64,000 nucleotides of DNA from an uncultured Bacilli bacterium (GTDB lineage: Bacteria > Bacillota_I > Bacilli_A > RF39 > UBA660): positions 51,830 through 115,829 of the forward strand of contig CAJTZY010000001.1 of NCBI GenBank assembly GCA_910584085.1, written 5' to 3'. The position numbers were made by a program, and so were the translations under genes. The notes under the pieces were generated by a model. That model did not search any database. It was not told the origin of the DNA and saw only the letters and a program-made list of their open reading frames with translations. Of the stretch, positions 2,429 to 45,519 are shown piece after piece (positions within the stretch are counted from its first letter, which is position 1; every line of letters begins with the position of its first letter).

Positions 2429-2541
2429 TTTAATGGATTAATAATCCTTTTTTTTGTAAACTTAAATTAATTAGTTATAAAAAGTATATCTTAAATATAA
2501 AAATATGCTATAATAGTATATATAATATAGGAGTGAAAAAT

Positions 2542-5885: not shown

Positions 5886-6977
5886 GTGGAAAATAAATTG
5901 AAGTTAGTTGTACCAGATAATTTTATTGAATTTGGAGTAAAGGTAAATAATCATATCAATCTTATAAGAAATACTCATGAAAATTATATAGTAGATATGA
6001 ATTTAGTACGTTTTAATAATGGTGAAGGAAAATGTTCGTTTAAAGAATCAGTAAGAGATCAAGACGTATACATTATGACTGATATAGGTAATTATGATGT
6101 TACATATGAAGCACAAAGGGGAATACATCATATGATGCCAGATGAACATTATCAAGATTTAAAAAGAATTATAAGTGCGATGGGTGGACATGCTAGTAAG
6201 ATTACAGTAATTATGCCTCTTTTATATCAATCAAGGCAAGATAAAAGAAGCTCAAGAGAATCACTTGATTGTGCAATGGCACTTCAGGAACTTGAAAGAT
6301 TTAATATTAGTGAACTCGTTACATTTGATGCACATAATCCTATAGTTGCTAATGCTATACCTAATAAAATGTCATTTAGTAATGGATATGCAACAAGTGA
6401 TATGATACTTAGTTTGTTAGAAAATGAAAATATAGATATCGATAAACTATTTATTGTAAGTCCAGATGAGGGAGCACGTACAAGGGCTAAGTTTTTAGCA
6501 GATATACTAGGTGGAGTAAAATATGGTAACTTTGATAAAAGAAGAGACTATACAAAAATAGAAGATGGTAAAAATCCCATGGTTTACCATGAATTTATTG
6601 GTCCAGAAAATCTTAACGGTTTAGATATAATCTTAGTAGATGATATGATCGCATCAGGTACTTCATTAATCGATTCTGCAGTTCAAATTAAAAATAGAGG
6701 CGCAAATCACATTTACCTTATGACTACGTTTGCACTATTCACTAAGGGTATAGAAATATTTGATGATGCATATAGGAAGGGAATATTTGATAAGCTATAT
6801 TCAACTAATTTAACATATGTTCCAAATGAATATAAGGAAATGCCTTGGTATTTTAATGTAGACTGTTCACATAAAGTTGCTAAAATTATAAGTGACTTAA
6901 ATGAGGGAAAGTCTATAAGATCACTTTTAAATGGAAAAGAAGAAACTGCACAAAAAATAAAAACTTTAAAAATATAA
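5886..6977 (+). CDS. prs: Ribose-phosphate pyrophosphokinase (PRPP synthetase) family, long form
   Basis: Carries LLYQSRQDKR (Prs RQDR region), DAHN, VSPDEGA, DKRRD, and the PRPP-binding loop IILVDDMIASGTS. GTG start after GGGGAG. Paralogous to 23704-24804. Confidence 0.8.
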   Translation: MENKLKLVVPDNFIEFGVKVNNHINLIRNTHENYIVDMNLVRFNNGEGKCSFKESVRDQDVYIMTDIGNYDVTYEAQRGIHHMMPDEHYQDLKRIISAMGGHASKITVIMPLLYQSRQDKRSSRESLDCAMALQELERFNISELVTFDAHNPIVANAIPNKMSFSNGYATSDMILSLLENENIDIDKLFIVSPDEGARTRAKFLADILGGVKYGNFDKRRDYTKIEDGKNPMVYHEFIGPENLNGLDIILVDDMIASGTSLIDSAVQIKNRGANHIYLMTTFALFTKGIEIFDDAYRKGIFDKLYSTNLTYVPNEYKEMPWYFNVDCSHKVAKIISDLNEGKSIRSLLNGKEETAQKIKTLKI

Positions 6978-12169: not shown

Positions 12170-12174
12170 AGGTA

Positions 12175-12203
12175 TTTACAAAATAAAAAAAATAGTGTAT
12201 ATT
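12175..12203 (+). promoter_or_regulatory. Sigma-A-type promoter for tRNA-Gly
   Basis: TTTACA (12175-12180), 17-nt spacer, TATATT (12198-12203). Confidence 0.45.
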
Positions 12204-12222
12204 TGATATATCACTATTTAAT

Positions 12223-12296
12223 GCAGGTGTGGTTCAATGGTAGAATGCGGCCTTGCCAAGGCTGAGACGCGAGTCCGATTCTCGTCACTTGCTCCA
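12223..12296 (+). tRNA. tRNA-Gly (GCC)
   Basis: Hand-folded. Acceptor stem is GCAGGTG/CACTTGC and the anticodon stem-loop is CGGCC-TTGCCAA-GGCTG. The T arm is GCGAG-TCCGATT-CTCGT. The CCA end is encoded. Confidence 0.9.
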
Positions 12297-12375
12297 TATG
12301 TAAATTTAGACTGGGTATAAATGCCTAGTTTTTTGTATTATTTGAACTCGCGTCTTAGCTAATTTATTAAATTAC
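12297..12375 (+). repeat. tRNA-Gly 3' flank module (copy Y0)
   Basis: Homologous by eye to 30508-30590 and 27349-27407. Shared blocks include tata.atgccta, a T-run, and g.actc.cgtct.agc.a.tttatta. Confidence 0.7.
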
Positions 12376-12705
12376 AACAAATAAATTAAAAATCAATTAG
12401 TTTTAGATATAGTTGATAGAGATAAAACAATTGTTTTTATTGATTTAGCTGATAGAACTATTGCCGAATATCAGGGTATTCAGAAATTATCTGTTACCCT
12501 AAAAGAATTAGAAAGTGAATTTCTTAATAATCGTGATAGAATTAGATTACTATATAAAAAATAATTAAGAATTGACTTTGCTATTATGATTTGTAGATTT
12601 TTTAAATGAACAAATTTTTGGATGAAAAACGCAATTAATCAAATTACAAAAATGTAGAAAAATTTGAAAAAGACAATGCAATTTAATACAAGCATTGTCT
12701 TTCAA

Positions 12706-13383
12706 TTATGTATGTACCATTTCCGTATTTTCTTTGATTTCATTATCAATGATCCATTTAATATCCTCAATGGATTTATCAATGTTAAAACGCCCATTTC
12801 CAACAGGATAATAAACTGAATAAAATTTATATTTAGTGCCATTAATATCTTTTATAAAACACTTTTTTCTTACTTGTGAAACAGATATTTTTTCATCTAA
12901 TACAATAGAACTAACTTGATTACCAAATAGAACTATAACTTTAGGATTAACAATATTAAATTCTTGTTTTAAAAGATACAAGTACTCTTTGTAAACAAAA
13001 TCTGGTAATTCTCTAGCATCAACTTGAGTACACTTGCCGAGATTAGTTATAAAATATTTATGTTTTTTTACATCATCATAAACTTTATCAGCAAATGCTT
13101 CTGTCCACTCGCTACCTTTCATTGATTTTATATTAGAATATATTTCCTTGTCTAATAAATCTAATTCAATGAATAAATCCCAAATGTTTTTTGTACCAAT
13201 CCAAGGGGATTTTAATCCTCCCCAGTCCTTTGATGAGGCAATATTCCTTCCTGTTGGATTCATAAATACAAAACATATATCAGGATTATTATCACAACCA
13301 CCATTATAAATTGAATCTAATTCTTTAGCACCATATTTTTTTTGAAGTTTATCATATTCCTTTGTCAAATCTTTTAAATTCAT
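12706..13383 (-). CDS. Uracil-DNA glycosylase superfamily protein
   Basis: Motif-1-like FVFMNPTGRN (compare GMNPG/GINPG of the SMUG/MUG classes), ITNLGKC, and a C-terminal YYPVGNG at the motif-2 position. The exact family is uncertain. Confidence 0.55.
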   Translation of the reverse strand: MNLKDLTKEYDKLQKKYGAKELDSIYNGGCDNNPDICFVFMNPTGRNIASSKDWGGLKSPWIGTKNIWDLFIELDLLDKEIYSNIKSMKGSEWTEAFADKVYDDVKKHKYFITNLGKCTQVDARELPDFVYKEYLYLLKQEFNIVNPKVIVLFGNQVSSIVLDEKISVSQVRKKCFIKDINGTKYKFYSVYYPVGNGRFNIDKSIEDIKWIIDNEIKENTEMVHT

Positions 13384-13392
13384 TAAACCATC

Positions 13393-14028
13393 CTATTTTA
13401 CTAATTTTTTAGTTTGGTCTTGTTCTATTGTTGAAATAGTATTTAATATAAATTCAAAAATATCTTTTTGTTCAACATCCATAGTACTTTTTTCTTCCTC
13501 TTCAGTTAATTCCGATTTAAATTTATTTAATGATGAAATAATTTGAATTGAAGCAAGAGGATATCCTTCATCAATAATTTTACTTTGTTTATTTGTAAAA
13601 CAACGATTAGCTTTATATTCAAATGTATATGTATTATTTTGATTAACGATTGCGACGCCTTTTAAAAAATATCCTTTTAGTGTTCCATTTTCTCCGTATT
13701 TATTTACTAAATCAATATAATATTTAATCATTTCTATATCATTTAATCTTTTACCATTAATTCTTCTAACGTGAGTACCTGGTTGGATATTATCAGGAAC
13801 ACTTTCTAAAAATAATCCCTCATCTAATGCTATTGTTGGCATTCCACTCATTTTATGGTATGCACTTGCCTTAATAATCGCATTTTCTATTGGATTTTTA
13901 CCTGTTTCATTAACATCGTATTCAATATTTAAATCTTCCAGTGTTACTATTTCAATACCATGTTCTCTCAATTTGGTTCCATAATATCTAATTTTTGCTT
14001 TATTTGTTGTTGCTAATAAATACTTCAT
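13393..14028 (-). CDS. Ham1/RdgB-like non-canonical NTP pyrophosphatase family protein
   Basis: LLATTNKAKI (ATxNxxK), NETGKNPIENAIIKA (ETG...NA..KA), and ALDEGLF at the DDSGL position. GGAGG precedes the ATG at 14028, so the MINGGNK extension in the ORF track is unlikely. Confidence 0.6.
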   Translation of the reverse strand: MKYLLATTNKAKIRYYGTKLREHGIEIVTLEDLNIEYDVNETGKNPIENAIIKASAYHKMSGMPTIALDEGLFLESVPDNIQPGTHVRRINGKRLNDIEMIKYYIDLVNKYGENGTLKGYFLKGVAIVNQNNTYTFEYKANRCFTNKQSKIIDEGYPLASIQIISSLNKFKSELTEEEEKSTMDVEQKDIFEFILNTISTIEQDQTKKLVK

Positions 14029-14101
14029 TTTATTTCCTCCGTTTATCAAGTTTTGAATATAATAAAATTATACAATAAATAATAGAAATTTACCATACTC
14101 C

Positions 14102-14162
14102 CTGTGATTTTTCATTGAAAATTCAAAAAAATTATAGAGACATTTTCACTGAAAAATCACAG
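14102..14162. promoter_or_regulatory. 21-bp inverted repeat in a divergent promoter region
   Basis: ctgtgatttttcattgaaaat (14102-14122) pairs with attttcactgaaaaatcacag (14142-14162). There is one mismatch and a 19-nt spacer. It lies between the Ham1-like gene (-) and the DUF3800-like gene (+). Confidence 0.5.
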
Positions 14163-14239
14163 AAAAAGATGATATTGAGCATTAGATATTAACTAATTAA
14201 ATCAATTTTGTTATAATATATAAAAGGAAGTGATTCTAC

Positions 14240-14941
14240 ATGATTCAAATGAATGTTTATTTTGATGAAAGCTGTCATTTGTTAAAAGACAACTCAGATG
14301 TTTTAGGAATTGGATGTTTATATTGTCAATCAGAATTTAGAAAAGAAATTATGTACAATATACGAGCTATAAAAAGAAAATATGGGTTTAAAAGAGATCA
14401 TGAAATAAAATGGACTAGAGTTTCCATGAATAAAATAGGATTATATAAAGAACTAATAGACTATTTCTTTCAGGAACCAAAATTACATTTTAGAGGAATA
14501 ATAACTCTAAATAAAAATCAATTGGTTGTTTCTGGTGAAGATGAATATAGACAATGGTATGATAAAATGAATTATTATTTGTTTAATAAAATAATCAATC
14601 GTGGCTATTCATATAGGATTTTCTTAGATAAAAGAGATACAAAAGGAAAAGAAAATTTAGGAAAACTAAGAGAAGTAATCTGCAATAGTAAATATGACTT
14701 TAGTATGGATACAATAACTAGCATCGAAGATATCAATTCAAATAACAATGATTTAATTCAACTTACTGATTTAATAATTGGAGCATTAACTTATTACCAC
14801 AGGGGTTTAACAAGTAGTCCCGCGAAAATGGAAATAATAAAACATTTATCTTTAAAAACAAATGTTTCTGAAACATCAAACTGGAATGAAACAAAGTTCA
14901 ACCTATTAATATGGAGTCCAAATATAAATTATGGAAAATAA
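14240..14941 (+). CDS. DUF3800-like protein
   Basis: N-terminal VYFDESCH (the family's xYxDESG-type start) and C-terminal LIQLTDLIIGAL resemble DUF3800 as I remember it. AAGGAAG RBS. Confidence 0.55.
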   Translation: MIQMNVYFDESCHLLKDNSDVLGIGCLYCQSEFRKEIMYNIRAIKRKYGFKRDHEIKWTRVSMNKIGLYKELIDYFFQEPKLHFRGIITLNKNQLVVSGEDEYRQWYDKMNYYLFNKIINRGYSYRIFLDKRDTKGKENLGKLREVICNSKYDFSMDTITSIEDINSNNNDLIQLTDLIIGALTYYHRGLTSSPAKMEIIKHLSLKTNVSETSNWNETKFNLLIWSPNINYGK

Positions 14942-15569
14942 TAATTTTGACTATAATACTTTTGTAGATGAAACATATGAAAAATTTAAAGAATATTTTA
15001 CCAACAATAAAACTTTAAAATATAATAATGTAGAGTATCCAATTATAATAAATACTAATGATTTAGAATTTGATGATAAACCGAGAATATTTTGGCATAT
15101 TTGTTCTCTAGGTGAAGAAAACGGCATATACTTTGATTCTTATAAAAAGCGATTAAAATTCAGCGTTTTTCCTTGTATAAATCATATTTCTTCAGTTAAT
15201 TGTAAATTACAATGTAATTTAGAAGATGAAAACATTCAATTAAAGGACAACAGAGTTCCTTGCATATATAGAATGAGTAAAATTGATAATCTTAAAATAG
15301 CTATGGATTTATTTAATGAACAAAGCAATCAAATAAAATGGTGGACTAAAAAAGAAACTTCTAATAAAAGTAAGAAAAACAAAAAAATGCTTAAAATAAG
15401 ATATACAAAAGCTTTAGAAGATTATGTTATAATGTTTGAATTTAGATATACTGATGCTAGTAAAAATCAAATTAGTAAATTTCAGTTTGTTACTGCTTAT
15501 CAAATTTTTGATAATAATACAAAAAAAAGATTTGACAATGAATATATAGAATTCTCAAGTAAAACTTGA
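14931..15569 (+). CDS. Hypothetical protein (212 aa), overlapping partner of the DUF3800-like gene
   Basis: The start overlaps the upstream stop by 11 nt (ATGGAAAATAA). Has a Cys cluster (FPCINHISSVNCKLQC). No recognised family. Confidence 0.65.
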   Translation: MENNNFDYNTFVDETYEKFKEYFTNNKTLKYNNVEYPIIINTNDLEFDDKPRIFWHICSLGEENGIYFDSYKKRLKFSVFPCINHISSVNCKLQCNLEDENIQLKDNRVPCIYRMSKIDNLKIAMDLFNEQSNQIKWWTKKETSNKSKKNKKMLKIRYTKALEDYVIMFEFRYTDASKNQISKFQFVTAYQIFDNNTKKRFDNEYIEFSSKT

Positions 15570-20190: not shown

Positions 20191-22023
20191 TTATACTTGT
20201 TTTATTGAATTTTCATTATTATCTGTTGATTGAGATTCAAATTTATTTGCATAAAAATTGTCAATATTAATGTAAATTTGTTTAACTCTCTCAACTTGTT
20301 CAAAATATTCCAAAACCATAGCATCTTCTGGAGATTTATCAATTTTAGATACAACACCATTTCTTGAAAGATAATCAACTTTATTTACCGCATCTACTAA
20401 ATTTTCAAAATTATCCTCTCCAATGTATTTTATAAGTTCTTCTGGGTCTGCATTAATTTTAGCTTTAATAACTTGAGGTCTAAACTTTTGTATTAGTGGA
20501 TATAATAAATTTTTAGTAATTAATGCAGTATTACTATTACTTGCATCTAATGATGTAAATTCTTCTGATTCTATTAAGTAAATTCCCTTATTTTGAAGAA
20601 ATTTAATTGCTTCTATTGTAAATATATCATTTAATGTTTCATTAAATTTTTCATATTTACGATAAGCCTTGTCGTATGTATTTTTTATAGAATCGTCATT
20701 AACGAAATCATTCAATTGTTCAAAACCGCATCCATTCGGATTCTGATCTATAATGTGTCCATTTTCATGCATAAAGCTGTGAAATAAAAATCCACCATCA
20801 TTAATTCTAATTGTATAAAACATTACTGATACAAACTCATTATTATCATTAGTAGCCCCTTGCCCTAAGATGCCTACTATTTTATTTTTTATATTATTAT
20901 AAATTGTTTCAAAGTTATTTGAATTATTACTAAACATTCTTATTGTGTCTGTAAAATCCTTTCTAGTTGTATAATATTCTCTAAGTGCTTCTTCATATTT
21001 TCTTTTCCTAGTTGAAGAAATATAACTAATCAACTCTTCTGAGAGGATATATTTTCTAATAGAATCTTGATTAATAAAATTTAAATATTTAATAATATCT
21101 TCTTCAGACTCACATTTTAACATATTTTCATTTGGTATAGTAACACCTAAATTTTTCAAATAACTTGATTGCCTAAAAACTATCCAAGCTTTATCAAAAG
21201 ATTTAACTTCAGGAGACATTATTTTTTCCATTTGCTCTTGCTTAAAATATTCAAGCAAAGATGTGTATGAAATATCACTAGGTCCTAATATGGCATCTTG
21301 TTGTTCTTTTAATGTTTTAGAAGCAATGAGATTCTTTAAAAAAGATGGTAATTTAGAAAAAATATCCTCAAACATTTCATCTTTCTTTTTTTGTAAAATC
21401 CTTTCTTTTCTCTTTTTCTCATACTCAACGTACTTTTCATAAGGCAGTAACTGGCTTGACCAATCATTATATTCAGAAAGTAATCTTTCATAAACTGAAT
21501 TATACTGATTAATTTTTTTTAATAATTCTGAATATTCCTTTGTTTCAGTAAAAGCATTAAAATTATCTTCTGTTATCTGTTCATGTTCACTATCCAGAAG
21601 ATAATTAATTATTTTTATTTTATTTTTTAGTAAACTTTCTGAATCTGCATTATTATTATCTTTAAAAGCTCGAAGTGGGGCTAAATAGTCTGCACTTTTA
21701 GAAAATCCAATATATGGAGAATAAATATAATATTCTAAAATTTTTTCAATATCACTATCTAAAGATTCAGTATAATTGCTTTTTTTATATTTTTGAACAT
21801 CTATTCCAATTTCTTCTAAAAATTGAATAGCAAATTTACGGGTTGTACAACATTTTAAATAGTATATATAATTATCTAATCCCTCAATATCATGATAGGG
21901 GATAATAAGGGCGTTATTAATTTTTGAAGAAATAATTGAACGATATTCTTCACCATACACATAACTAAAAGCATCAATAACATATGGCAATAAGCTCTTT
22001 AAAATAATATTTAACTTATCCAT
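20191..22023 (-). CDS. HEXXH zinc-metallopeptidase-like protein (610 aa)
   Basis: Single HEXXH (FMHENGHIID), with a candidate third ligand Glu about 35 residues downstream (KFNETLND). The rest is unrecognised. Confidence 0.5.
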   Translation of the reverse strand: MDKLNIILKSLLPYVIDAFSYVYGEEYRSIISSKINNALIIPYHDIEGLDNYIYYLKCCTTRKFAIQFLEEIGIDVQKYKKSNYTESLDSDIEKILEYYIYSPYIGFSKSADYLAPLRAFKDNNNADSESLLKNKIKIINYLLDSEHEQITEDNFNAFTETKEYSELLKKINQYNSVYERLLSEYNDWSSQLLPYEKYVEYEKKRKERILQKKKDEMFEDIFSKLPSFLKNLIASKTLKEQQDAILGPSDISYTSLLEYFKQEQMEKIMSPEVKSFDKAWIVFRQSSYLKNLGVTIPNENMLKCESEEDIIKYLNFINQDSIRKYILSEELISYISSTRKRKYEEALREYYTTRKDFTDTIRMFSNNSNNFETIYNNIKNKIVGILGQGATNDNNEFVSVMFYTIRINDGGFLFHSFMHENGHIIDQNPNGCGFEQLNDFVNDDSIKNTYDKAYRKYEKFNETLNDIFTIEAIKFLQNKGIYLIESEEFTSLDASNSNTALITKNLLYPLIQKFRPQVIKAKINADPEELIKYIGEDNFENLVDAVNKVDYLSRNGVVSKIDKSPEDAMVLEYFEQVERVKQIYINIDNFYANKFESQSTDNNENSIKQV

Positions 22024-22357
22024 TTAAAACCTCATTTATTAATTTCTGATTAAGCCTTTCGAATGCTTCGAAATTACTAGGATAATTTGATTTACCATGG
22101 TATTCTTTTTTACTATCATCCACATAGGTAATAGACAAATTCCAATATTCTTCATCTATTGTTTTTGTATCAATATATTCCTTTTTCCAGTCATCTATTA
22201 TGCTAAAAAGAGATTCTAAATATTTGAAAACTACATTACTATCTATTGTTTTTGAAATGTCTTTGTATAAAATTTTGCTCTTATTACTAATATAAATATT
22301 TAAACTTTTGCCATTTTTTTCAAAAGTTATATTTTTAACACCCATCATAACCTTCAC
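22016..22357 (-). CDS. Hypothetical small protein (113 aa), coupled upstream partner of the HEXXH protein
   Basis: Its stop overlaps the start of 20191-22023 by 8 nt. No motif recognised. Confidence 0.6.
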   Translation of the reverse strand: MKVMMGVKNITFEKNGKSLNIYISNKSKILYKDISKTIDSNVVFKYLESLFSIIDDWKKEYIDTKTIDEEYWNLSITYVDDSKKEYHGKSNYPSNFEAFERLNQKLINEVLNG

Positions 22358-22415: not shown

Positions 22416-22463
22416 TCGTTGGTAGGTGAAAAAAGTTGTAGGTATCTACGCCATATGCTCCAT
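22416..22463 (+). repeat. tRNA-Gly-end-like junction repeat (copy X3)
   Basis: tcgttggtaggtgaaaaaagttgtaggtatctacgccatatgctccat aligns with the 30.5-kb copy. Followed by a terminator hairpin (aatcat..atgatt plus T-run). Confidence 0.6.
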
Positions 22464-22620
22464 TGAGGAATCTACCCGAAACTTTTTTGAGTTTAATATA
22501 GAAATCATTTGAAAGGATGATTTTTTTTGCTTAAAGAAAATGAGACGTTGAAAGTTAATCATTAACTCTCAACATCCCATTTACATAATAATATTGTTGA
22601 AATACACAAACAATAGTAAT

Positions 22621-23688
22621 TTATTTAGTATAAATTTTCTTTTTTACTTTTTCTTCTTCACTCTCACTTAATAGATAGCTATAGTCATAGTTACTTATTC
22701 TTTTTGCACCTCCTAGTTCTGGTAAATCAATTAAACACAACACTTTTGTAACATTTCCTCCTAGGCGTTCTATTAATTTGATGATTGCCTCCATTGTTCC
22801 ACCAGTTGCCATTAAATCATCAATTATTGCCACATTTTGACCAGGTTTTATAGCATCTTTATGAATTTCCAAAGTATCTGTTCCATATTCTAATTCATAT
22901 TCTTGCTGAATAGTTTCTGCTGGTAATTTATTTGGTTTTCTAACAGGAACATATCCTTTATTTAATTTATATGCAACAGGTGCAGCAAACATAATTCCTC
23001 TCGCTTCTGGACCAACAATAATATCTACATTTTGATCAATTTTACTTGCTAGAAAGTCAATTGCAAGATGATAAGCAAATGGATCCTTTAAAATAGTTGT
23101 AACATCTTTAAAGTTAATTCCAGGTTTTGGATAATCACTAATTCTTCTTAGAGTTAATGATAATTTAAGTTTTACGAGATATTCTTTCATTTTTTTATAT
23201 TCTTCATCATGTGGTAGTAATTGATTGCTATCCATTAGACGAAGCATTTCTTCTATACTTACCCAACAGGTATAAGAAACTTCTTCTTTTTGAAGAATTA
23301 TCTCTTCTTTATTTATATTTTGCCTTGCTATAAATACATCGACCAATTCATTACTATCAATATCAGCATATTTTAACCTCTCCTGAATAGTTGTAAAGTA
23401 TTCTACACTTTCTGAATCTAAATCAACTCCTAACTCTTCTTTGGTTTCTCGAAATAAAGCATCTATAGAATTTTCTTTCGTACTTACATGCCCTCCAACA
23501 GAAACATCCCATGTGTTAGGATATAATTTTTTATTTCCACATCGATATTGAAGTAGAATTTCTCCATCATCATTAATAATCCACAAATGGACTGATCTAT
23601 GTAGTCTCCCTTCTTTATGGGCTACATCCTTATCAATAACCCCAATTATTTCTCCTTTATCATTTAATTCATCAATTATTTCTTTCAT
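22621..23688 (-). CDS. Nudix hydrolase / adenine phosphoribosyltransferase fusion protein
   Basis: The N-terminal half has a full Nudix box: GGHVSTKENSIDALFRETKEELGV (Gx5Ex7REUxEExGU). The C-terminal half is collinear with Apt: DYPKPGINFKDVTTIL, IVGPEARG, and the PRPP loop VAIIDDLMATGGT. Confidence 0.85.
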   Translation of the reverse strand: MKEIIDELNDKGEIIGVIDKDVAHKEGRLHRSVHLWIINDDGEILLQYRCGNKKLYPNTWDVSVGGHVSTKENSIDALFRETKEELGVDLDSESVEYFTTIQERLKYADIDSNELVDVFIARQNINKEEIILQKEEVSYTCWVSIEEMLRLMDSNQLLPHDEEYKKMKEYLVKLKLSLTLRRISDYPKPGINFKDVTTILKDPFAYHLAIDFLASKIDQNVDIIVGPEARGIMFAAPVAYKLNKGYVPVRKPNKLPAETIQQEYELEYGTDTLEIHKDAIKPGQNVAIIDDLMATGGTMEAIIKLIERLGGNVTKVLCLIDLPELGGAKRISNYDYSYLLSESEEEKVKKKIYTK

Positions 23689-23703
23689 ATTATTTTATCC
23701 TTC

Positions 23704-24804
23704 CTATTTCTTAATTAATTTTTTTACTTCATTTTTTTCATAATCATCAACTTGTCTTAATGATTGTTCATTGGAAATGGCATTAATCACGTTTGCAAAG
23801 TATTTTGATAAATCAACTTCGTGATACCAATTTTCTTTCTTTATATCCTCTAGAACGTAGGTAACATTCGTTGTATATAAAGTATTAAAAATACCAAGTT
23901 TGTTAGCCTCTTTAAATCTTTTTATACTTTCTTCTCCATCTGTAAATAATGGGAATGTTACCATAATATCAATTTTTTTTGCACCTTTCTTTTTTAATTT
24001 TGATGCAACATCTAAGACAGATTCTCCACTAGCAATCATATCATCAACAATAATTATATGTTTACCAGCTACATCCTCTCCTAAGTACTTGTGTTCAACT
24101 AAAGGATTCTTTCCATTTATCACTTTGGAATAATCTCTTCTTTTATGAAACATTCCAACATTGACTCCTAAGATACTTGCAAATGGAATTGCTCGAGAAA
24201 TAGCTCCCTGGTCTGGTGCGATAACAATAGTTTTATCTCTTTGAAATTCTTCACTCAACAAAAATTCTTTTAAGAGAATGTAAGTAGGTAATAGATTATT
24301 AAAAGTTGTTTTTCTTAAGACATTATTGCACACAACAGGATTATGCGCATCTAAAGTAATGATTCCATCTACATTTTTAGTTTCTAAGTCAATCAATCCT
24401 TCCTTGCAATCAAGAGACTCATCCACACCATTTGGCTTCTTATCTTGTCGTGATTCATATAGTAGTGGAGTTACAACATGAATGGACTTTGCTCTGCCAT
24501 CTATTGCAGAAATAATTCTTTTAATATCTTGAAAGTGATCATCTGGACTTTTCATATAGATTCTTCCTCGAGAATAATAGCAAGACTCTTCTCCGTAGTT
24601 TCCTACATCTGATAAAATAAAGATTCTCTTTTCCATAACATCACCATGCAATGTTGCTTTTCCCTCAGCATTTGAAAATCGGTCTAAGTGTATATCAATA
24701 CTTTTATCATACGGATTACCTCGAATGACTTTTAAATGTTCATTTACAAGTTTTCCAAACTTTTGTATATTTGGCATAATAATAAGTTTTGGCTCTTTAC
24801 TCAT
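23704..24804 (-). CDS. Ribose-phosphate pyrophosphokinase-like protein (second, cassette-borne paralog)
   Basis: Carries LLYESRQDKK, DAHN, APDQGA, HKRRD, and IIIVDDMIASGES. GGGAGGAG precedes the ATG at 24804 (MSKEPK...). Lies 15 nt upstream of the Nudix-Apt gene on the same strand. Confidence 0.8.
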   Translation of the reverse strand: MSKEPKLIIMPNIQKFGKLVNEHLKVIRGNPYDKSIDIHLDRFSNAEGKATLHGDVMEKRIFILSDVGNYGEESCYYSRGRIYMKSPDDHFQDIKRIISAIDGRAKSIHVVTPLLYESRQDKKPNGVDESLDCKEGLIDLETKNVDGIITLDAHNPVVCNNVLRKTTFNNLLPTYILLKEFLLSEEFQRDKTIVIAPDQGAISRAIPFASILGVNVGMFHKRRDYSKVINGKNPLVEHKYLGEDVAGKHIIIVDDMIASGESVLDVASKLKKKGAKKIDIMVTFPLFTDGEESIKRFKEANKLGIFNTLYTTNVTYVLEDIKKENWYHEVDLSKYFANVINAISNEQSLRQVDDYEKNEVKKLIKK

Positions 24805-24935
24805 ATCTTTCTCCTCCCTCAACAACACCATTATATATTAATTTTTTTAAATTTTTTCAAAAAGTATATTAACTAATAGTAGAATTTTCTTGTAATTTTT
24901 GTATGTTTTTGATATAGTAATTTTGAGGTGTTAGT

Positions 24936-26204
24936 ATGAATCATTATGAACTTGGAAATCATATATATAATCTTAGAGTTGCAAGAGGACTTACGCAAAG
25001 AGATATTGCTGAAAAACTATCTATTTCCGATAAAGCTATTTCAAAATGGGAGAACGGAACTTCTCAACCAACGGTTTACAATCTTCAGAAATTAGCAGAT
25101 ATATTTGATATAACTTTGGAAGAATTATTGAAAGTTTCAAAAGAAAATCAAGAGAAGCAAATTACAAAAATTGTAATTACAGGAGGAATATTATCTGGGA
25201 AAAGCACCTGCTGTCATGAAGTAAAGGATCATTTTGAAAAAATCGGTTATAAAGTTGTTATTGTTCCTTCTATGGAATCTATATTAGAAGAGAATGGATT
25301 TATAGATTTTAATAATTATGAAGAACTACTAAAAAGTCGACTAGAGTTTGAGAAAACATTTAATAATTTAATACAAGCTATGGATGCAAATAAAATATTG
25401 GTGCTATATGATGGTGCTAGTCTAGATATTAGAAGCATGTGTACAAAAAGAGAATTCACAACCATTTGCAATACACTATCTATATCTTCAGAAGAGGTTA
25501 GAAATTCATATGATGCAGTATTTCACTTAAAAAGTATCGCAAAATGGGATAACACACTTTTTGATAAATTAAATGATAATAATAAAATAGATTCTTCTCT
25601 AGCAATTACCATAGATGATAAAATTATTGATACTTGGATTGCTCATGCTAATTATAGAATGATTGACTGTTGTATTTCTATAGAAAATAAAGCAAAGAAA
25701 CTGATTCATGAGATTGCAAAATTTTTAAATGAAGATGAAAGGTTTTATATTGAAAAAAAATATTTAATTCATATTCCAGATATATCTTATTTGGATAAAC
25801 TAGGTGGTTGTAGCAAAGTAAAAATGACCTTAACGTATTTAAATAAATCTTCCGAACAGTGTGATATAAAGCTTCTTCTACGAGATGAAGATGGTAAAAA
25901 ATTCTATCAAAAAATCATTAAAGGCAATAATAAAAAAAGTACAATTTCATTAAGTGCAGAGGAATATATCGATGAACTGGATAATAAGATGCTTGATAGA
26001 AACCCAATTGTTAAGTACCGATACAGTTTTATATATCATTCAGTTTACTATAAAATCGATATCTTCGAAGACAAAGCTTTTTCTATTTTAGAAGTGGATT
26101 TATTAAGTAGTCATGAAACCATACAGTTCCCATCGTTTATTGAAGTATTAAAAGATGTAAGTGAGGATCCAAATTATAAAAATTATAATCTTAGTAAAAA
26201 GTAA
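24936..26204 (+). CDS. Three-domain protein: XRE-type HTH, P-loop NTPase/kinase-like domain, CYTH (triphosphate tunnel) domain
   Basis: HTH: LRVARGLTQRDIAEKLSISDKAISKWENG. Walker A: ITGGILSGKST. The C-terminal ~150 aa has the CYTH pattern (YIEKKYLI start, alternating charged strands, ILEVDL, then FPSFIEVLKDVSEDPNYKNYNL). Confidence 0.7.
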   Translation: MNHYELGNHIYNLRVARGLTQRDIAEKLSISDKAISKWENGTSQPTVYNLQKLADIFDITLEELLKVSKENQEKQITKIVITGGILSGKSTCCHEVKDHFEKIGYKVVIVPSMESILEENGFIDFNNYEELLKSRLEFEKTFNNLIQAMDANKILVLYDGASLDIRSMCTKREFTTICNTLSISSEEVRNSYDAVFHLKSIAKWDNTLFDKLNDNNKIDSSLAITIDDKIIDTWIAHANYRMIDCCISIENKAKKLIHEIAKFLNEDERFYIEKKYLIHIPDISYLDKLGGCSKVKMTLTYLNKSSEQCDIKLLLRDEDGKKFYQKIIKGNNKKSTISLSAEEYIDELDNKMLDRNPIVKYRYSFIYHSVYYKIDIFEDKAFSILEVDLLSSHETIQFPSFIEVLKDVSEDPNYKNYNLSKK

Positions 26205-26371
26205 ATAGAATTACAGTTTATATTTTATCAAAAAATGAAAATAAGCAAGTAACATTGCTTATTTTTGGTCTCAGACATGTTATATTATACATGAAGATTA
26301 TATATTCACTAGTTTTGACAATCAATTTAGAACATGTTCTATTAACTTAGTAAATAGATGATATATATATT

Positions 26372-26455
26372 GTCTTCGTATAGAGAAAAGTTGTGTCATC
26401 ACTCTAATATCGCTACATTCAAAAAATCGATTTTTTTGATGCTTTTATTTAACAA
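26372..26455 (+). repeat. Diverged junction repeat (copy X4 plus flank)
   Basis: gtcttcgtatagagaaaagttgt...taatatcgctacattc parallels the X unit with a ~10-nt insertion. The following gatgcttttattta matches 27385-27398. Confidence 0.45.
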
Positions 26456-26602: not shown

Positions 26603-27277
26603 TTAAGCACTTCTTACTTTTTTTAATTTTTTAATACTAGTATATTGCTCATATATATTATCTAGTTCCATTGGATTTTTTACAAATATTTCCCCTGCAT
26701 ATGGTTTAACAAAGTCACCTTTAATTTTTAATTTATCCACTGATATTTGTCCGTTAAATAATCTTATTAATAATATATTTGTTAAACTAGATAAATTTAT
26801 ATATTCGTCAAAACCAACTTTCAATAAAATTGCATTTTTATATAATGTTCTTAGTGTTGTTTGTTCTTCGAATGATGCAAACCAATCGTAATTTAATTTA
26901 TATTTATAAACACAAATATCACCTATAAATAAATCATTTATATCTAAATAATCTAGATTAATGACCTGATTCTTTTTGCCTTTATAGTAAGTATATTGTT
27001 TAGTGAATCCGGAAAAAATATCAAATTGTTCTGAACAAGAATCAGAATAGCTACTACTATCATTGTTATTATTAGAATTAATATTATCGTGATTTTGTTT
27101 TTTATCTTTCATTATGTGTTTATATGCTTCAATTATTTTTTTCATTTTTTCTTCATTATTAATGCCAGGATTTAAATCTGGATGATATTTAAATACCAAT
27201 TTTCTATATGCTTTCTTTATTTCCTCTACTGAGGCATTACTTGATACTCCTAAAATATCATAATAATTTTCTGTCAT
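26603..27277 (-). CDS. J-domain (DnaJ N-terminal domain) protein with an unknown C-terminal domain
   Basis: [33 protein letters not shown] includes the HPD tripeptide. This is followed by an N/S-rich linker and ~140 aa of unrecognised sequence. No Gly/Phe region or zinc-finger region of full DnaJ. Confidence 0.8.
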
Positions 27278-28367: not shown

Positions 28368-28441
28368 TGCCTATATATAATATTTGTATTTTACATTATA
28401 TAAAAAAATAGTGTATAATGCAATTAGAAAGAGGTGAAAAT

Positions 28442-29464
28442 ATGACAAGACAAGAAATTAGAGAAATTGTAATGAGCGGTAATACGGGAGAATATTCACA
28501 TGTGATAATATGCTGTGATACTTTCGATTATGAGGATTATCCAGTGTATGTTAAATATGAAGAAGATATTAAAAAAGTGGTAGCAGATTATAATGATCAT
28601 AATAAAATGAGTAGCGTTATGGAGGTATATAACTATAATTTAGAATTAGAAAAGCAATTAAATGAAAGAAGAGCTTATCATATAGAACCATTAAATAAAT
28701 ATAAAAAAACTGTTAAAAACAATGAAGAAAAAATGCCAGAGAAAGTGGAAACAGCGAGTTCCCAATATGATAATAATATAAGTGAAAACTTGAAAAAGGC
28801 AATTGATTATGCAGTAAGAATGCATAAAGGACAAACAAGACTAAATGGTGAACCATATATAAAACACCCTCTACACGTTGTTCAAAATGTCTTAAAATAT
28901 AAAAAATCAAAGAATATTGAGGCATTATTAATAAGTGCATGTCTACATGACACAATAGAAGATACTGAAGCTACTTACTATGATATATCTCAAAATTTTG
29001 GATCACAAGTAGCTAGCTTAGTTTTAGAATTAACTACTGATGAAGATATGAAAAATGCACTTGGGAAGCAACAATATTTATCAATAAAAATGAAGAATAT
29101 GAGCAGTTGGGCTCTTGTAATTAAATTATGTGATAGACTCGATAATGTGAATGACCTATTAGATTGTAAAGATGAAAAATTTAAAAACAAATATGTAACT
29201 GAAACAATAGAAATTATGGATTATCTCTTAAAAAACGCAAAATTATCAAATACTCATATAACAATCATAGAACAAATATTATGCTTATTAATTCAATTAA
29301 GTAAAGATGATAATGAAAAGACAACAAAATTAACTGAAATCATTGATAGATACTCAAAATTAAAAATAAGTTTGCATAATCAAGATGAAATATTTTCAAG
29401 ATTAATGAAAATTACTAATTATATGGATGATAATGGTAATATGTGTAAAAAATTAATTTTATAA
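28442..29464 (+). CDS. RelA/SpoT-type HD hydrolase domain protein (small alarmone hydrolase-like) with extra N- and C-terminal regions
   Basis: AIDYAVRMHKGQTRLNGEPYIKHPLHV and ACLHDTIEDT match the (p)ppGpp-hydrolase HD domain. The first ~120 aa are unrecognised. The ATG at 28442 follows AGAGGTGA. Confidence 0.75.
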   Translation: MTRQEIREIVMSGNTGEYSHVIICCDTFDYEDYPVYVKYEEDIKKVVADYNDHNKMSSVMEVYNYNLELEKQLNERRAYHIEPLNKYKKTVKNNEEKMPEKVETASSQYDNNISENLKKAIDYAVRMHKGQTRLNGEPYIKHPLHVVQNVLKYKKSKNIEALLISACLHDTIEDTEATYYDISQNFGSQVASLVLELTTDEDMKNALGKQQYLSIKMKNMSSWALVIKLCDRLDNVNDLLDCKDEKFKNKYVTETIEIMDYLLKNAKLSNTHITIIEQILCLLIQLSKDDNEKTTKLTEIIDRYSKLKISLHNQDEIFSRLMKITNYMDDNGNMCKKLIL

Positions 29465-30452: not shown

Positions 30453-30590
30453 GTATTCTTTCGTTATTGGAAAAGAATTGTAAATATCTACGCCACTTGC
30501 TCCATATATGTATTTAACTAAGTCGAAATACTTAGTTTTTATATGCATTTTTGGACTCACGTCTCAGCCAGTTTATTACTTTAGAATTTA
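30453..30590 (+). repeat. Best-conserved duplicate of the tRNA-Gly 3' end plus flank (copies X6 + Y2)
   Basis: 30494-30507 (cacttgctccatat) is identical to 12286-12299, which is the tRNA acceptor 3' strand, CCA and 3 nt beyond. It is followed by terminator hairpin aactaagt-cgaaat-acttagtt plus a T-run, then a flank homologous to 12297-12375. Confidence 0.75.
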
Positions 30591-30597
30591 TGCCAAA

Positions 30598-30846
30598 CGA
30601 AAAGTGAACAGAAGTGTTGATAATATTTTTTATAGACTTGGATATGTAGAAACATTTGTAACAGGTATTGGAAGAATTATGGATAGTTATGAACAATACA
30701 GCAAAAAACCAAATTTTGATTTGATAGAAACCACATTTTCTATTACATTGCCTAATAACTATAAAGCTAACATTGTTACTCCTAGTTTATCTCAAGAAGA
30801 TATAATTATTAATTATTTGAAAGAATATAATAAAATAAATAGATGA
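30598..30846 (+). pseudogene. C-terminal fragment of an AlbA_2/ATPase-like putative DNA-binding protein (often annotated RecG-like)
   Basis: RLGYVETFVTGIGRIMDSY...TFSITLPN resembles the C-terminal part of that family as I remember it. The first 30 codons of ORF 30508-30846 run through the repeat and terminator and are not credible. Confidence 0.4.
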
Positions 30847-38112: not shown

Positions 38113-38187
38113 ACTGATAAAATTGATTATTAAAAAGTCAGTTTTTTTTGATTTTTATTTGATATATTTAATTAGAGGTGAAGACTT

Positions 38188-40038: not shown

Positions 40039-40042
40039 AAGA

Positions 40043-45119: not shown

Positions 45120-45519
<400 letters not shown>

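Follow-up and report, generated by a model that had tools for sequence, protein, structure and literature searches.

The 64,000-nucleotide stretch of DNA analysed here (the window) carries a three-gene block encoding a second ribose-phosphate diphosphokinase (Prs2), a rare fusion of a Nudix hydrolase with an adenine phosphoribosyltransferase (Nudix-Apt), and a divergently transcribed HTH / P-loop / CYTH protein. We give roughly even odds to the view that the block is a self-regulated operon for salvaging adenine to AMP, with a PRPP supply of its own, and that it is an accessory, island-borne unit which moves horizontally. The genes and domains of the block are real: all three ORFs were recovered where an earlier, sequence-only reading had placed them, and their profile matches bear out the composition it described (Table 1). 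The analysis established the domain identities, the catalytic motifs, the co-inheritance of the genes, the discrete ends of the module and a shared cis element.

Table 1. Positions of the block and associated features in the window.
Feature	Position	Strand	Description	Evidence
prs1	5886..6977	+	other PRK06827-type Prs, presumably resident, 363 aa	402 bits
tRNA-Gly(GCC) gene	12223..12296	+	repeats resemble its 3' end	ARAGORN and Rfam
Repeat, copy L	22427..22474	+	tRNA-Gly-3'-end-like; ~60 nt beyond the left module end	L vs T score 25
Conserved three-gene module	22531..26334		extent, 3.8 kb	blastn; end alignments
Intrinsic terminator	22539..22581	-	3' of nudix-apt; 20-bp stem and T run; left end of the conserved module	terminator scan and module boundary
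nudix-apt	22621..23688	-	Nudix-Apt fusion, 355 aa	Pfam, NCBIfam, AF2 model
prs2	23704..24804	-	second ribose-phosphate diphosphokinase, PRK06827 subfamily, 366 aa	NF005299; alignment to E. coli Prs
Cis element	24868..24886	-	AATTCTACTATTAGTTAAT, conserved, in divergent promoter region; candidate operator of the HTH regulator	motif comparison across loci
Regulator gene	24936..26204	+	422 aa	Pfam HTH_3, AAA_28; family profile; Foldseek
Probable terminator	26240..26266	+	3' of regulator gene; hairpin and T-run, AATAAGCA-loop-TGCTTATTTTT	read directly from sequence
Repeat, copy T	30469..30516	+	tRNA-Gly-3'-end-like	score 20 vs tRNA-Gly 3' end and downstream

A discrete module in a variable region

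The host is an uncultured Bacilli/Firmicutes gut bacterium of roughly 25% GC, and the cassette lies in a tRNA-Gly-linked variable region. The module recurs in at least five other metagenomic contexts at 85-97% DNA identity, and the flanks are all unrelated. It is 97.3% identical to the copy in locus L022 and 85-88% identical to those of five other loci over 22588-26205. The sharp ends of homology, the different flanks and the association with tRNA-Gly uphold the earlier description of a variable, cassette-borne unit, as opposed to a core operon fixed at one locus in all relatives. Candidate defence genes also surround the block, and a purely metabolic reading leaves them unexplained.

The cassette lies downstream of tRNA-Gly in two lineages; in loci L001-4 it lies 1.1 kb past the 3' end of a tRNA-Gly(TCC) gene. 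The tRNA-Gly(GCC) gene of the window is the likely integration target of an island array. Between copies L and T lie 8 kb of DNA, with a J-domain protein, a LysR regulator, an HD_4 hydrolase and a 241-aa ORF in addition to the cassette. The two copies are identical at 36 of 47 positions, with an alignment score of 25 against a null mean of 7.6. The score of copy T against the tRNA-Gly 3' end and downstream region was reached by 0 of 2000 random segments, and the two have the exact 14-mer CACTTGCTCCATAT in common. The repeats previously proposed to bound the cassette fared unequally: the left copy is real, and its partner is copy T. The proposed right copy, at 26372-26455, scores 15 against copy L, and scores of 15-17 are ordinary background in this AT-rich DNA. 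An automated repeat search of the window reported neither of the two copies proposed earlier.

Within the module, 15 nt (23689-23703) separate the prs2 stop from the nudix-apt start, one terminator is common to both genes, and the divergent promoter region between prs2 and the regulator gene is highly conserved. The hairpin 3' of the regulator gene falls under the GC criterion of the terminator scan and is kept in L022. The window clade and L039 have the regulator gene divergent from prs–nudix-apt, L038 pairs the regulator with nudix-apt without prs, and L005-7 carry prs–nudix-apt without the regulator. Nudix-Apt is the hub of this gene association; four sub-clades keep it together with Prs, the regulator or both.

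The PRPP synthetase

Judged by its sequence, Prs2 is an ordinary member of the PRK06827 subfamily. Its ORF runs on to 24831, but the ATG at 24804 is the likely start, because GGAGG precedes it and the database protein P0241 (366 aa, 100% identical) agrees. Prs2 scores 367.8 bits against NF005299/PRK06827 (cut-off 327), and in alignment to E. coli Prs it retains the RQDK region, the KRR loop, the His and the DDMIASGES loop. With prs1 also present in the window, this confirms the earlier identification of a second paralog with intact RQDK and PRPP-loop motifs.

Prs1 and Prs2 are 42-43% identical, and standalone bacterial PRK06827 proteins are 46-60% identical to Prs2. Foreign Prs proteins, at 55-60%, are nearer to Prs2 than the resident Prs1 at 42%, which points to acquisition and not local duplication. 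The only true phage-genome hits among the matches listed were annotated phage prsA genes, at ~22% identity. Set against the values for standalone bacterial proteins, this indicates that Prs2 is not Adps-like, the alternative to a housekeeping placement that was raised earlier. The variable loop position in Prs2 is not diagnostic, and its R5P-loop variant is inside normal family variation. There is no solved structure for a PRK06827-type Prs.

The Nudix-Apt fusion

The fusion joins a YfcD/DR0079/IDI-like Nudix hydrolase (residues ~1-160) through a linker helix to a canonical adenine phosphoribosyltransferase (~175-340). Pfam detects NUDIX (E 6.5e-17) and Pribosyltran (E 6.9e-18) in the 355-aa protein. 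The C-terminal half passes both NCBIfam Apt equivalogs, TIGR01090 (205.7 bits, cut-off 185.85) and NF002636 (209.2 bits, cut-off 125), so that the full Apt fused to a Nudix domain just downstream of prs2 stands as first described. In the AF2 model (pLDDT 87.5, pTM 0.83), the Apt half matches E. coli APRT 2DY0 (52% identity, rmsd 1.3 Å). The motifs EARG, VRKPxKLP, YxLEYG and DDLMATGGT are invariant in 25 homologues, and by sequence the domain appears to be a canonical, ordinary housekeeping-type enzyme.

The Nudix box is complete, as previously noted (G66-x5-E72-x7-R80-E81-x2-E84-E85-x-G87-V88), and invariant in 25/25 fusion homologues spanning both fusion clades (58-97% identity). The closest solved structures of this half are IDI (1NFS), YfcD, DR0079 and NudI, of which 1NFS and DR0079 are nearest to the AF2 model, and the domain lacks the proline ~16 residues past the box. 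Together these features place the domain, as far as sequence and fold indicate, in the IDI/YfcD/DR0079 branch and not in the ADP-ribose pyrophosphatase branch on which the sequence-only reading had drawn. The closest relatives with a known activity use pyrimidine (d)NDP/(d)NTP or prenyl diphosphates as substrates (PMC5389931), which have no obvious use in adenine salvage.

The putative divergent regulator and a shared cis element

The divergent protein comprises an XRE-type HTH (residues 1-66), a nucleotide/nucleoside-kinase-like P-loop domain (~75-265; Walker A GGILSGKST) and a degenerate CYTH/TTM domain (~270-422), in agreement with the composition first proposed. Pfam matches HTH_3 (E 1.6e-16) and, marginally, AAA_28 (28.3 bits vs 27); it does not detect CYTH in the 422-aa protein itself. 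The CYTH assignment is made because the regulator-family profile matches the NE1496 triphosphatase (2FBL/3TYP, E about 1e-6, positions 276-428), Pfam CYTH is found in 7/33 homologues, and the AF2 model (pLDDT 87.5) gives a TM of 0.69 to NE1496. Foldseek matches include NE1496, the AtTTM1 kinase-TTM tandem 7Z67 and thymidylate/deoxynucleoside kinases.

In the window clade the CYTH signature reads YIEKK in place of EIERK, and the first Glu of ExExK, one tunnel Arg, both central-strand Glu and the Glu of ExD are lost. Since several catalytic residues are missing, the domain is better explained as a sensor than as a cyclase, and the cyclase or phosphatase function envisaged earlier is unlikely in this clade. 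Distant homologues sit in unrelated housekeeping contexts, so the regulator may control more than the cassette operon.

The core of the cis element, TCTACYNYTRGTT, has a single occurrence in the window (0.08 expected). All cassette loci carry it in the same place in the promoter, as do L038, L039 and L005-7, the last being regulator-less prs–nudix-apt operons. In L011-14 it lies some 65-75 bp upstream of the distant HTH-AAA_28-CYTH genes. Chance would give about 6e-5 matches per 100-bp window. The core is absent near the regulator homologues of L008-10, and no further sites with up to 3 mismatches stood above chance in the window. The sharing of TCTACYNYTRGTT by the cassette, the regulator-less operons and distant regulator promoters suggests a single autoregulated regulon. 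The element has no clear palindrome and overlaps promoter hexamers, so part of its conservation may be promoter conservation.

Comparison with known systems

The analogy to nadV-prs-nadM(Nudix) clusters drawn in the sequence-only reading is grounded in the literature. In that NAD salvage route, Nudix converts ADPR to Rib-P, PRPP is formed, and a phosphoribosyltransferase (PRTase) rebuilds the nucleotide; prs-nadV operons carry extra prs paralogues (Rodionov et al. 2008, PMC2330246). Like the cassette as interpreted here, these NrtR-regulon clusters co-transcribe a dedicated second prs with a salvage phosphoribosyltransferase, link a Nudix hydrolase to the pair and encode a nucleotide-sensing regulator next door (PMC2330246). 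The components differ: NadV/Nampt takes the place of a type I adenine PRTase, the Nudix domain is fused to NMNAT whereas that of the cassette is PRTase-fused and of the IDI/YfcD/DR0079 branch, the regulator is NrtR and not XRE-HTH/kinase-like/CYTH, and the product is NMN or NAD, whereas that of the cassette would be AMP.

Phage NAD reconstitution pathway 1 (Adps + Namat) also sets a Prs-family diphosphokinase before a PRTase-family transferase in one operon (bioRxiv 10.1101/2024.02.11.579819, PMC12774641) and has an accessory, mobile distribution. Its partner enzyme is of the Nampt family, in contrast to Apt. The cassette further differs in its normal PRK06827-type Prs2, only about 22% identical to annotated phage prsA, in not being found in phages or viral contigs, and in having its own regulator and Nudix domain. 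The ShosT toxin of ShosTA likewise unites a pyrophosphate-bond hydrolase and an APRT-like PRTase in one polypeptide. However, its hydrolase is a HAD-type inorganic pyrophosphatase and its divergent PRTase bound none of the tested purines (PMC11961720), whereas the cassette has a Nudix domain and an apparently bona fide Apt. The PADLOC match to ShosT is generic (E 6e-5 over about 45 residues), and no ShosA partner was found at the cassette.

The regulator shares the kinase-like and CYTH/TTM tandem fold of Arabidopsis TTM1/TTM2 (PDB 7Z67, Foldseek E 4e-7; PMC9582702). Unlike these it adds the N-terminal HTH and lacks the plant coiled-coil and membrane anchor, and unlike both these and NE1496, an inorganic triphosphatase, its clade has a partly degenerate tunnel. 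NadR (HTH + NMNAT + AAA_28 ribosylnicotinamide kinase) is similarly a transcription factor with a nucleotide-metabolising AAA_28-type P-loop effector that controls a salvage pathway; the regulator, in contrast, has CYTH in place of NMNAT, matches AAA_28 marginally, and has a P-loop domain structurally closest to thymidylate and deoxynucleoside kinases.

Alternative explanations and proposed model

The Nudix half might instead serve Apt as a regulatory or ligand-sensing domain, in the manner of NrtR, or be an unrelated house-cleaning activity that became fused. With 5,539 representatives at E<=1e-10, its subfamily is a large one; it is mostly standalone and fuses promiscuously (GNAT, MGMT DNA-binding, YcxB, Cu-oxidase_4), and Nudix domains without enzyme activity are known (PMC5389931). 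The invariance of the catalytic box in both fusion clades nevertheless argues for retained hydrolysis, and together with the retention of the fusion alongside its partners it leaves this explanation unlikely. We rate as equally improbable a catalytically active, bifunctional regulator, in which a kinase is joined to a CYTH triphosphatase or class IV cyclase to make or destroy a signal or metabolite and the HTH is secondary, as in NadR. NadR is a precedent for such a hybrid (PMC2330246), AtTTM1/2 have the same kinase-TTM tandem (PMC9582702), the regulator retains Walker A and conserved Asp/Arg residues, and distant homologues keep a complete CYTH signature (EIERK, RIRQR, ExE, EID, EIE). Against this reading, the window clade has lost the tunnel residues listed above, and the window protein itself lacks a Pfam CYTH match.

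A role in immune conflict seems slightly less probable still: an adenylate or NAD-derived pool rebuilt after nucleosidase/NADase effectors (adenine and ribose phosphates or ADPR to AMP), or a defence system that itself manipulates nucleotides and is triggered through the HTH/CYTH sensor. Phage reconstitution by a Prs-like enzyme and a PRTase is a precedent (NARP1; bioRxiv 10.1101/2024.02.11.579819), and the accessory nature and variable flanks of the cassette also fit. Between tRNA-Gly and about 47 kb, the window holds PDC-M04A/B (1.4e-67, 9e-34), a HerA/mad8-like ATPase and PDC-S04 Fic (6.9e-85), and other cassette contexts hold a Schlafen/AlbA_2 ATPase, Fic, RmuC and IS110; yet the PDC families are candidates, and nearness to them is weak evidence. 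The nearest standalone Nudix homologues follow an ADPR-sensing NrtR-type regulator, but the Nudix domain of the cassette is not of the ADPRase type. On one contig of the IMG/VR viral collection, a regulator-less kinase-CYTH homologue has an ADP-ribosylglycohydrolase as its neighbour, but this 467-kb record may not be phage, and the neighbour is missing from a second such contig. Neither IMG/VR viral contigs nor phage records yielded a copy of the cassette and PADLOC returned generic domains without a specific match. Prs2 is not Adps-like, Apt is of the housekeeping type, and the L005-type pair has an ordinary chromosomal context and a Prs close to standalone Prs. No firm tie to phage immunity emerged, and a role in immunity or counter-immunity is a speculative, unsupported possibility.

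For the salvage operon that we favour, we infer every enzymatic step, ligand and sign of regulation. Prs2 would convert ribose-5-phosphate and ATP to PRPP, and the Apt half of the fusion would combine PRPP with adenine to give AMP and PPi, the Prs-to-Apt logic of the first reading that holds here. The fused Nudix half is predicted to be an active pyrophosphohydrolase, which most plausibly either supplies the pathway with ribose-5-P or AMP split from a nucleoside-diphosphate-X compound, or trims adenine nucleotides to AMP. The divergent protein would be the operon's own autoregulated transcription factor, binding the TCTAC-N4-TRGTT element in the shared promoter region, with its P-loop and partly degenerate triphosphate-tunnel domains acting as putative nucleotide or polyphosphate sensors and not as enzymes. 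The rebuilding of AMP from adenine is, in our assessment, the most likely role of the three-gene block.

Gene organization of the cassette

The cassette carries two divergent transcription units in DNA of low GC content (~25% across the window). On one strand, a second PRPP synthetase gene (prs2) is followed by a gene encoding a fusion of a Nudix domain with an adenine phosphoribosyltransferase (Apt); on the other, a single gene encodes a protein with HTH, kinase-like and CYTH domains, here called the regulator. The sequence-only reading had assigned the two enzymes as Prs and Nudix-Apt, and both Pfam and NCBIfam confirmed these assignments. No Rfam match to a riboswitch or other RNA element was found in the cassette. 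The prs2 leader would be only ~25 nt long if transcription starts from the TTGAAA-17-TATATAAT promoter, an assignment made by eye.

Features of the cassette and candidate defence genes in the same window
Feature	Position	Strand	Remarks
prs2	23704-24831 (ORF); probable start ATG 24804	-	GGAGG precedes the ATG; 366-aa database protein P0241 is 100% identical
nudix-apt fusion gene, 355 aa	22621-23688	-	15 nt downstream of prs2
Intrinsic terminator at the end of nudix-apt	22581-22539	-	20-bp stem
Regulator gene, 422 aa	24936-26204	+	104-131 bp from prs2, depending on the prs2 start
Hairpin and T-run, 3' of the regulator gene	26240-26266	+	
PDC-M04A/B (PADLOC candidate)	14240-15569	+	DUF3800 protein of 233 aa and 212-aa protein; E 1.4e-67 and 9e-34
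HerA/DUF87-like ATPase, 616 aa	38188-40038	+	PADLOC mad8 E 3.6e-16; HerA E 8.5e-11
PDC-S04 Fic (PADLOC candidate), 179 aa	43553-44092	-	E 6.9e-85

The Nudix-Apt fusion

The Apt half scores above the NCBIfam equivalog cut-offs (TIGR01090, 205.7 bits versus 185.85; NF002636, 209.2 versus 125; NF002634, 207 versus 170), and the motifs of the PRPP, PPi and flexible loops (DDLMATGGT, GPEARG, VRKPxKLP and YxLEYGxD) are invariant among 25 homologues. In an AlphaFold model of the fusion protein (pLDDT 87.5, pTM 0.83), the Apt half matches the APRTs of E. coli and Yersinia with TM scores of 0.89-0.93 and deviations of 1.3-1.6 Å, at ~52% identity. By every sequence and fold criterion, the Apt half is a bona fide adenine phosphoribosyltransferase.

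The Nudix box is complete and invariant among the fusion homologues. In profile and single-sequence PDB searches, the closest solved structures were type 1 IDI (profile E ~4e-16), YfcD, DR0079 and NudI, of which DR0079 is a pyrimidine NDP/NTP hydrolase (PMC5389931). A type 1 IDI function was rejected: the catalytic Cys (E. coli C67; aligned position VSVGGH) is absent and NF002995 gives 78.1 bits versus a cut-off of 127, so that, with its full hydrolase Nudix box, the Nudix half is predicted to be a hydrolase and not an isomerase. Membership in the ADP-ribose (ADPR) pyrophosphatase subfamily was rejected as well. The signature of that subfamily, said to have been described by Dunn et al. in 1999, is reportedly a Nudix box with a proline ~15-16 residues downstream; the protein sequence contains no Pro in residues 89-125 of the Nudix half, and IDI, YfcD, DR0079 and NudI rank first. 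Characterised ADPRases were not retrieved in the PDB searches, the sole generic match being an "ADPR pyrophosphatase MutT" at E 7e-4. Given the intact box, we consider it improbable that the Nudix half is non-catalytic or unrelated to the pathway.

The Nudix subfamily is large, with 5,539 50%-cluster representatives at E ≤ 1e-10. Most are standalone proteins of 175-185 aa, with occasional fusions to GNAT, MGMT DNA-binding, YcxB and Cu-oxidase_4/YfiH-like domains. The fusion to Apt is rare: among 5.8 billion proteins it accounts for ~40 clusters at 90% identity, which form two groups (82-97% and 58-65% identity) beyond which only standalone Apt was found. Among GTDB species representatives, three uncultured Firmicutes/Clostridium/Bacilli MAGs carry a fusion-type Nudix domain (79-84% identity) and two MAGs a standalone one (42-43%), and two distant matches (35%) come from other phyla. 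No Nudix-Apt fusion is described in the literature searched. In locus L019, from an uncultured Firmicutes MAG (1267-2546), a standalone Nudix homologue (42-43%) overlaps the stop codon of an NrtR-type regulator gene (Nudix + NrtR_WHD); locus L018 (1927-3221) has the same two-ORF layout, the NrtR-type domain assignment coming from L019.

Prs2 is an intact, probably acquired PRPP synthetase

On NF005299/PRK06827, Prs2 reaches 367.8 bits against a cut-off of 327, and alignments show that the catalytic set is kept: RQDK, His, the KRR flexible loop and the DD ribose loop. The PDB alignment, independently of the E. coli Prs reference used in two other alignments, shows the same residues. The sole unusual residue is a Glu in the R5P loop (DDMIASGES), which was rejected as a mark of altered substrate since this position varies freely (G/S/T/Q/E/Y/K/A/N).

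The other copy in the window, the presumably resident prs1 (5886-6977, plus strand), encodes a member of the same subfamily (402 bits) that is only 42-43% identical to Prs2. Prs2 is 59% identical to the Prs preceding Nudix-Apt in loci of the L005 type, and 55-58% identical to standalone Prs proteins such as the database entry P0313, which has no Nudix-Apt nearby. Being closer to foreign Prs proteins than to prs1, Prs2 therefore looks acquired and not duplicated in place.

The hypothesis that Prs2 resembles Adps, the ADPR diphosphokinase of phage NARP1, did not hold in a comparison made through annotated phage prsA genes. Prs2 was ~22% identical to the prsA product of an Acinetobacter phage (E 5e-6), prsA providing the only true phage-genome hits among the matches listed. 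The partner of Prs2 is an Apt and not a member of the Namat/Nampt family, the loop is variable and no viral contig matched. A phage origin was likewise rejected: INPHARED gave nothing beyond ~40%-identical matches to Prs2, on short, unannotated "Bacteriophage sp." faecal contigs, and IMG/VR gave none.

A predicted regulator with a TTM-type domain

In Pfam, the regulator matches HTH_3 (E 1.6e-16) and, marginally, AAA_28; CYTH was not detected by Pfam in the window protein. Pfam does find CYTH in 7 of 33 regulator homologues, and a 33-sequence profile of the family matches the NE1496 inorganic triphosphatase over positions 276-428 (E ~1e-6). The AlphaFold model (pLDDT 87.5) matches NE1496 in Foldseek (E 1.8e-8, TM 0.69), as well as the tandem kinase-TTM protein TTM1 of Arabidopsis (7Z67) and, through the middle domain, thymidylate and deoxynucleoside kinases. 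Judged from the model and the family profile, a TTM beta-barrel fold is present.

Distant homologues (38-40% identity) carry the full CYTH signature. The window clade departs from it, with YIEKK instead of EIERK, K-x-L instead of R-x-R, S/T instead of the central E-x-E, YKID instead of FE(I/L)D and EVD instead of EVE, and keeps neither the catalytic ExExK nor the full set of acidic and basic tunnel residues. We infer that the tunnel would bind a ligand rather than catalyse. The Walker A motif (GGILSGKST) is intact; an enzymatically active regulator nevertheless seems unlikely.

The protein shares its HTH and AAA_28 domains with the NadR type. Unlike NadR, it lacks an NMN adenylyltransferase domain and has CYTH as its C-terminal domain. 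The family is wider than the cassette, with homologues of 38-53% identity encoded among unrelated housekeeping genes, and the literature searched describes no HTH-kinase-CYTH regulator. Kinase-like-CYTH tandems without HTH, with a complete EIERK signature, occur on two IMG/VR contigs of 467 and 394 kb (L040, 7989-9933; L041, 7995-9065); a gene of the ADP-ribosylglycohydrolase family follows the homologue in the former but not in the latter.

A conserved element in the divergent promoter region

The divergent promoter region between prs2 and the regulator gene is strongly conserved. It contains a core element, TCTACYNYTRGTT (24871-24883, minus strand), which is found a single time in the window, where 0.08 occurrences are expected. 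All cassette loci carry the element at the corresponding position, as do L038 and L039, and it also lies upstream of prs-nudix-apt in L005-7, where no regulator gene is adjacent. In L011/12 and L013/14, it furthermore precedes the genes of distant regulator homologues by 65-75 bp, with no Prs or Nudix-Apt nearby. These loci (L011-14) were left out when the pattern was defined, and the chance of a match in a given 100-bp window is ~6e-5.

We read the core element as the predicted operator of the regulator, which would imply autoregulation together with control of prs-nudix-apt. As -35-like and -10-like hexamers adjoin the element or share bases with it, part of the conservation may be promoter conservation. 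Within the window, no further operator sites were found above chance, and the core (TCTAC) element is absent from L008-10, which carry a different palindrome with 13-bp arms. In L008 (7918-7950), this near-perfect palindrome, AAAGTTATATTAA-T-TTAATATAACTTT, precedes the gene of a regulator homologue of 44% identity and may act as another operator or as a terminator.

Linkage and mobility

The gene association centres on Nudix-Apt. The regulator gene diverges from prs-nudix-apt in the window clade (L001-4, L015-17, L022 and L023) and in L039, L038 has the regulator gene divergent from Nudix-Apt without Prs, and L005-7 have Prs and Nudix-Apt without an adjacent HTH gene. On the opposite strand after prs-nudix-apt, L005 carries a run of genes (11088-14304, minus strand) that is conserved in L005-7 and may be another nucleotide-metabolism cluster: a 309-aa ORF, a thymidylate-kinase-like gene, an HD gene, a 138-aa ORF and a short gene resembling inorganic pyrophosphatase.

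The cassette is inherited as a block and shares its promoter element across loci, and it is mobile. In blastn, DNA identity to L022 is 97.3% across exactly 22531-26334, and five other loci are 85-88% identical across 22588-26205, with no similarity outside in either case. Two unknown ORFs flank the cassette on one side in the window and a J-domain protein on the other; elsewhere the flanks are a Schlafen/AlbA_2 ATPase (L022), DUF7694, IS110 and a 243-aa ORF (L001-4), or radical-SAM, 531-aa and APH genes (L023). None of the flanking proteins of the other cassette loci is present in the window. The two ORFs directly to the left (20191-22357, minus strand; 610 and 113 aa) overlap, belong to no family and are absent from all related loci examined. 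The J-domain protein (26603-27277, minus strand; 224 aa) continues into a low-complexity N/S-rich linker and a C-terminal domain of no assigned family, without the DnaJ zinc-finger and C-terminal domains.

tRNA-Gly-end-like repeats had been proposed on both sides of the cassette. The left copy stands: after an initial repeat search that gave nothing usable, local alignment with nulls paired 22427-22474 with a copy at 30469-30516 (score 25). The proposed right copy at ~26.4 kb does not (score 15, equal to background). The copy at 30469-30516 matches the 3' end of tRNA-Gly(GCC), whose gene lies at 12223-12296, and the DNA downstream of it, with an exact core of 14 nt and a score of 20 that none of 2000 random segments reached. 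In L001-4, 1.1 kb separates the cassette from the 3' end of an upstream tRNA-Gly(TCC) gene. From the repeats and this position, the cassette therefore appears to be cargo of tRNA-Gly-linked variable regions; the region lies downstream of the tRNA gene and holds direct repeats of its 3' end, as a tRNA-targeted island does. A scan of ORFs of 90 aa or more from 12.7 to 47.7 kb, covering all but a few short ones such as 45120-45416, showed no integrase or recombinase, and an IS110 transposase is near the cassette only in L001. When the neighbouring ABC permease was used to probe a metagenome collection for an empty site, only relatives of 37-78% identity were retrieved, and synteny ends directly after the 85-aa gene.

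The 8-kb segment bracketed by the two repeats also contains a 348-aa protein (28418-29464, plus strand) with only a RelA/SpoT-type HD_4 domain behind a 120-residue N-terminal extension, resembling a small alarmone hydrolase. Right after the right-hand repeat starts a 112-aa ORF (30508-30846, plus strand), a fragment-like HATPase_c_4 (Schlafen/AlbA_2-type) sequence of the type that flanks the cassette in L022; tblastn showed no direct homology between the two. Farther away in the window lies a 591-aa ClpX-like AAA+ protein (2533-4308, plus strand; 165 bits versus the ClpX cut-off of 359) with an N-terminal extension of ~260 residues.

Proposed function and its rivals

By sequence, the cassette combines an intact Prs with a canonical Apt fused to an intact Nudix domain, alongside a predicted dedicated HTH sensor protein. 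Prs2 would supply PRPP, from which Apt would form AMP with adenine; the Nudix half may supply or trim a pyrophosphate-linked metabolite for the same pathway, and the regulator would gate expression in response to a nucleotide or polyphosphate ligand. This design parallels that of the nadV-prs-nadM(Nudix) operons, in which an additional prs paralogue serves a single salvage PRTase and the ribose-5-P released by Nudix is reused (PMC2330246). By this analogy, the logic of the cassette is a variant of known salvage operons. Weak hints of an ADPR/NAD connection come from AAA_28, the NadR kinase family, from the standalone Nudix homologues closest in sequence, which in two MAGs are translationally coupled to an NrtR-type regulator, and from the ADP-ribosylglycohydrolase gene that a kinase-CYTH homologue precedes on the 467-kb IMG/VR contig but not on the second one. 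An enzymatically active regulator, or a Nudix half that is non-catalytic or unrelated, would be a variant of this salvage reading and not an exclusive alternative.

An immune or counter-immune role for the cassette would fit its variable context and its candidate defence neighbours. Among these, the PDC-M04A and PDC-M04B genes are adjacent to each other just downstream of tRNA-Gly. However, the cassette was found neither in phage records nor on IMG/VR viral contigs, and PADLOC 2.0 gave its proteins no specific match, only generic PRTase, Nudix and HTH domain-level matches (E 1e-4 to 1e-14). Moreover, Apt and Prs2 are ordinary, and the L005-type pair sits in an ordinary chromosomal setting; such a role is thus quite unlikely. 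A particular form of it, which we regard as very unlikely, is that the cassette is a host-side means of reconstituting the adenylate pool after the action of nucleosidase/NADase-type immune effectors of the same island. The regulator would then sense a triphosphorylated ribose or nucleotide breakdown product and de-repress Prs2 and Nudix-Apt, which would rebuild AMP from released adenine and ribose phosphates or ADPR. If so, cells could come out of an arrest like that of abortive infection, or withstand such toxins when competitors deliver them.

Among the neighbours, the 616-aa ATPase forms an operon-like trio (36964-40741, plus strand) with a 382-aa protein of no family match and a 236-aa ORF, which could be a HerA-based defence system; a Fic protein is also found near the cassette in L001. 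The many candidate defence genes of the tRNA-Gly island in which it lies may make the cassette a reasonable, if weak, candidate for studies of nucleotide-pool warfare.

If the cassette is a salvage operon, the design of a dedicated Prs, a salvage PRTase and a Nudix enzyme, known for NAD, would reach adenine nucleotides as well. The Nudix-Apt fusion and the HTH-kinase-like-CYTH proteins are two families that can now be tested. The former is a rare physical link that could reveal the substrate of the large YfcD/DR0079-like Nudix branch; the latter, if our reading is right, would provide a CYTH-containing transcription factor whose operator and target operon are both predicted. A complete salvage step, comprising precursor supply, transferase, accessory hydrolase and sensor-regulator, would then move among gut Firmicutes as one block.
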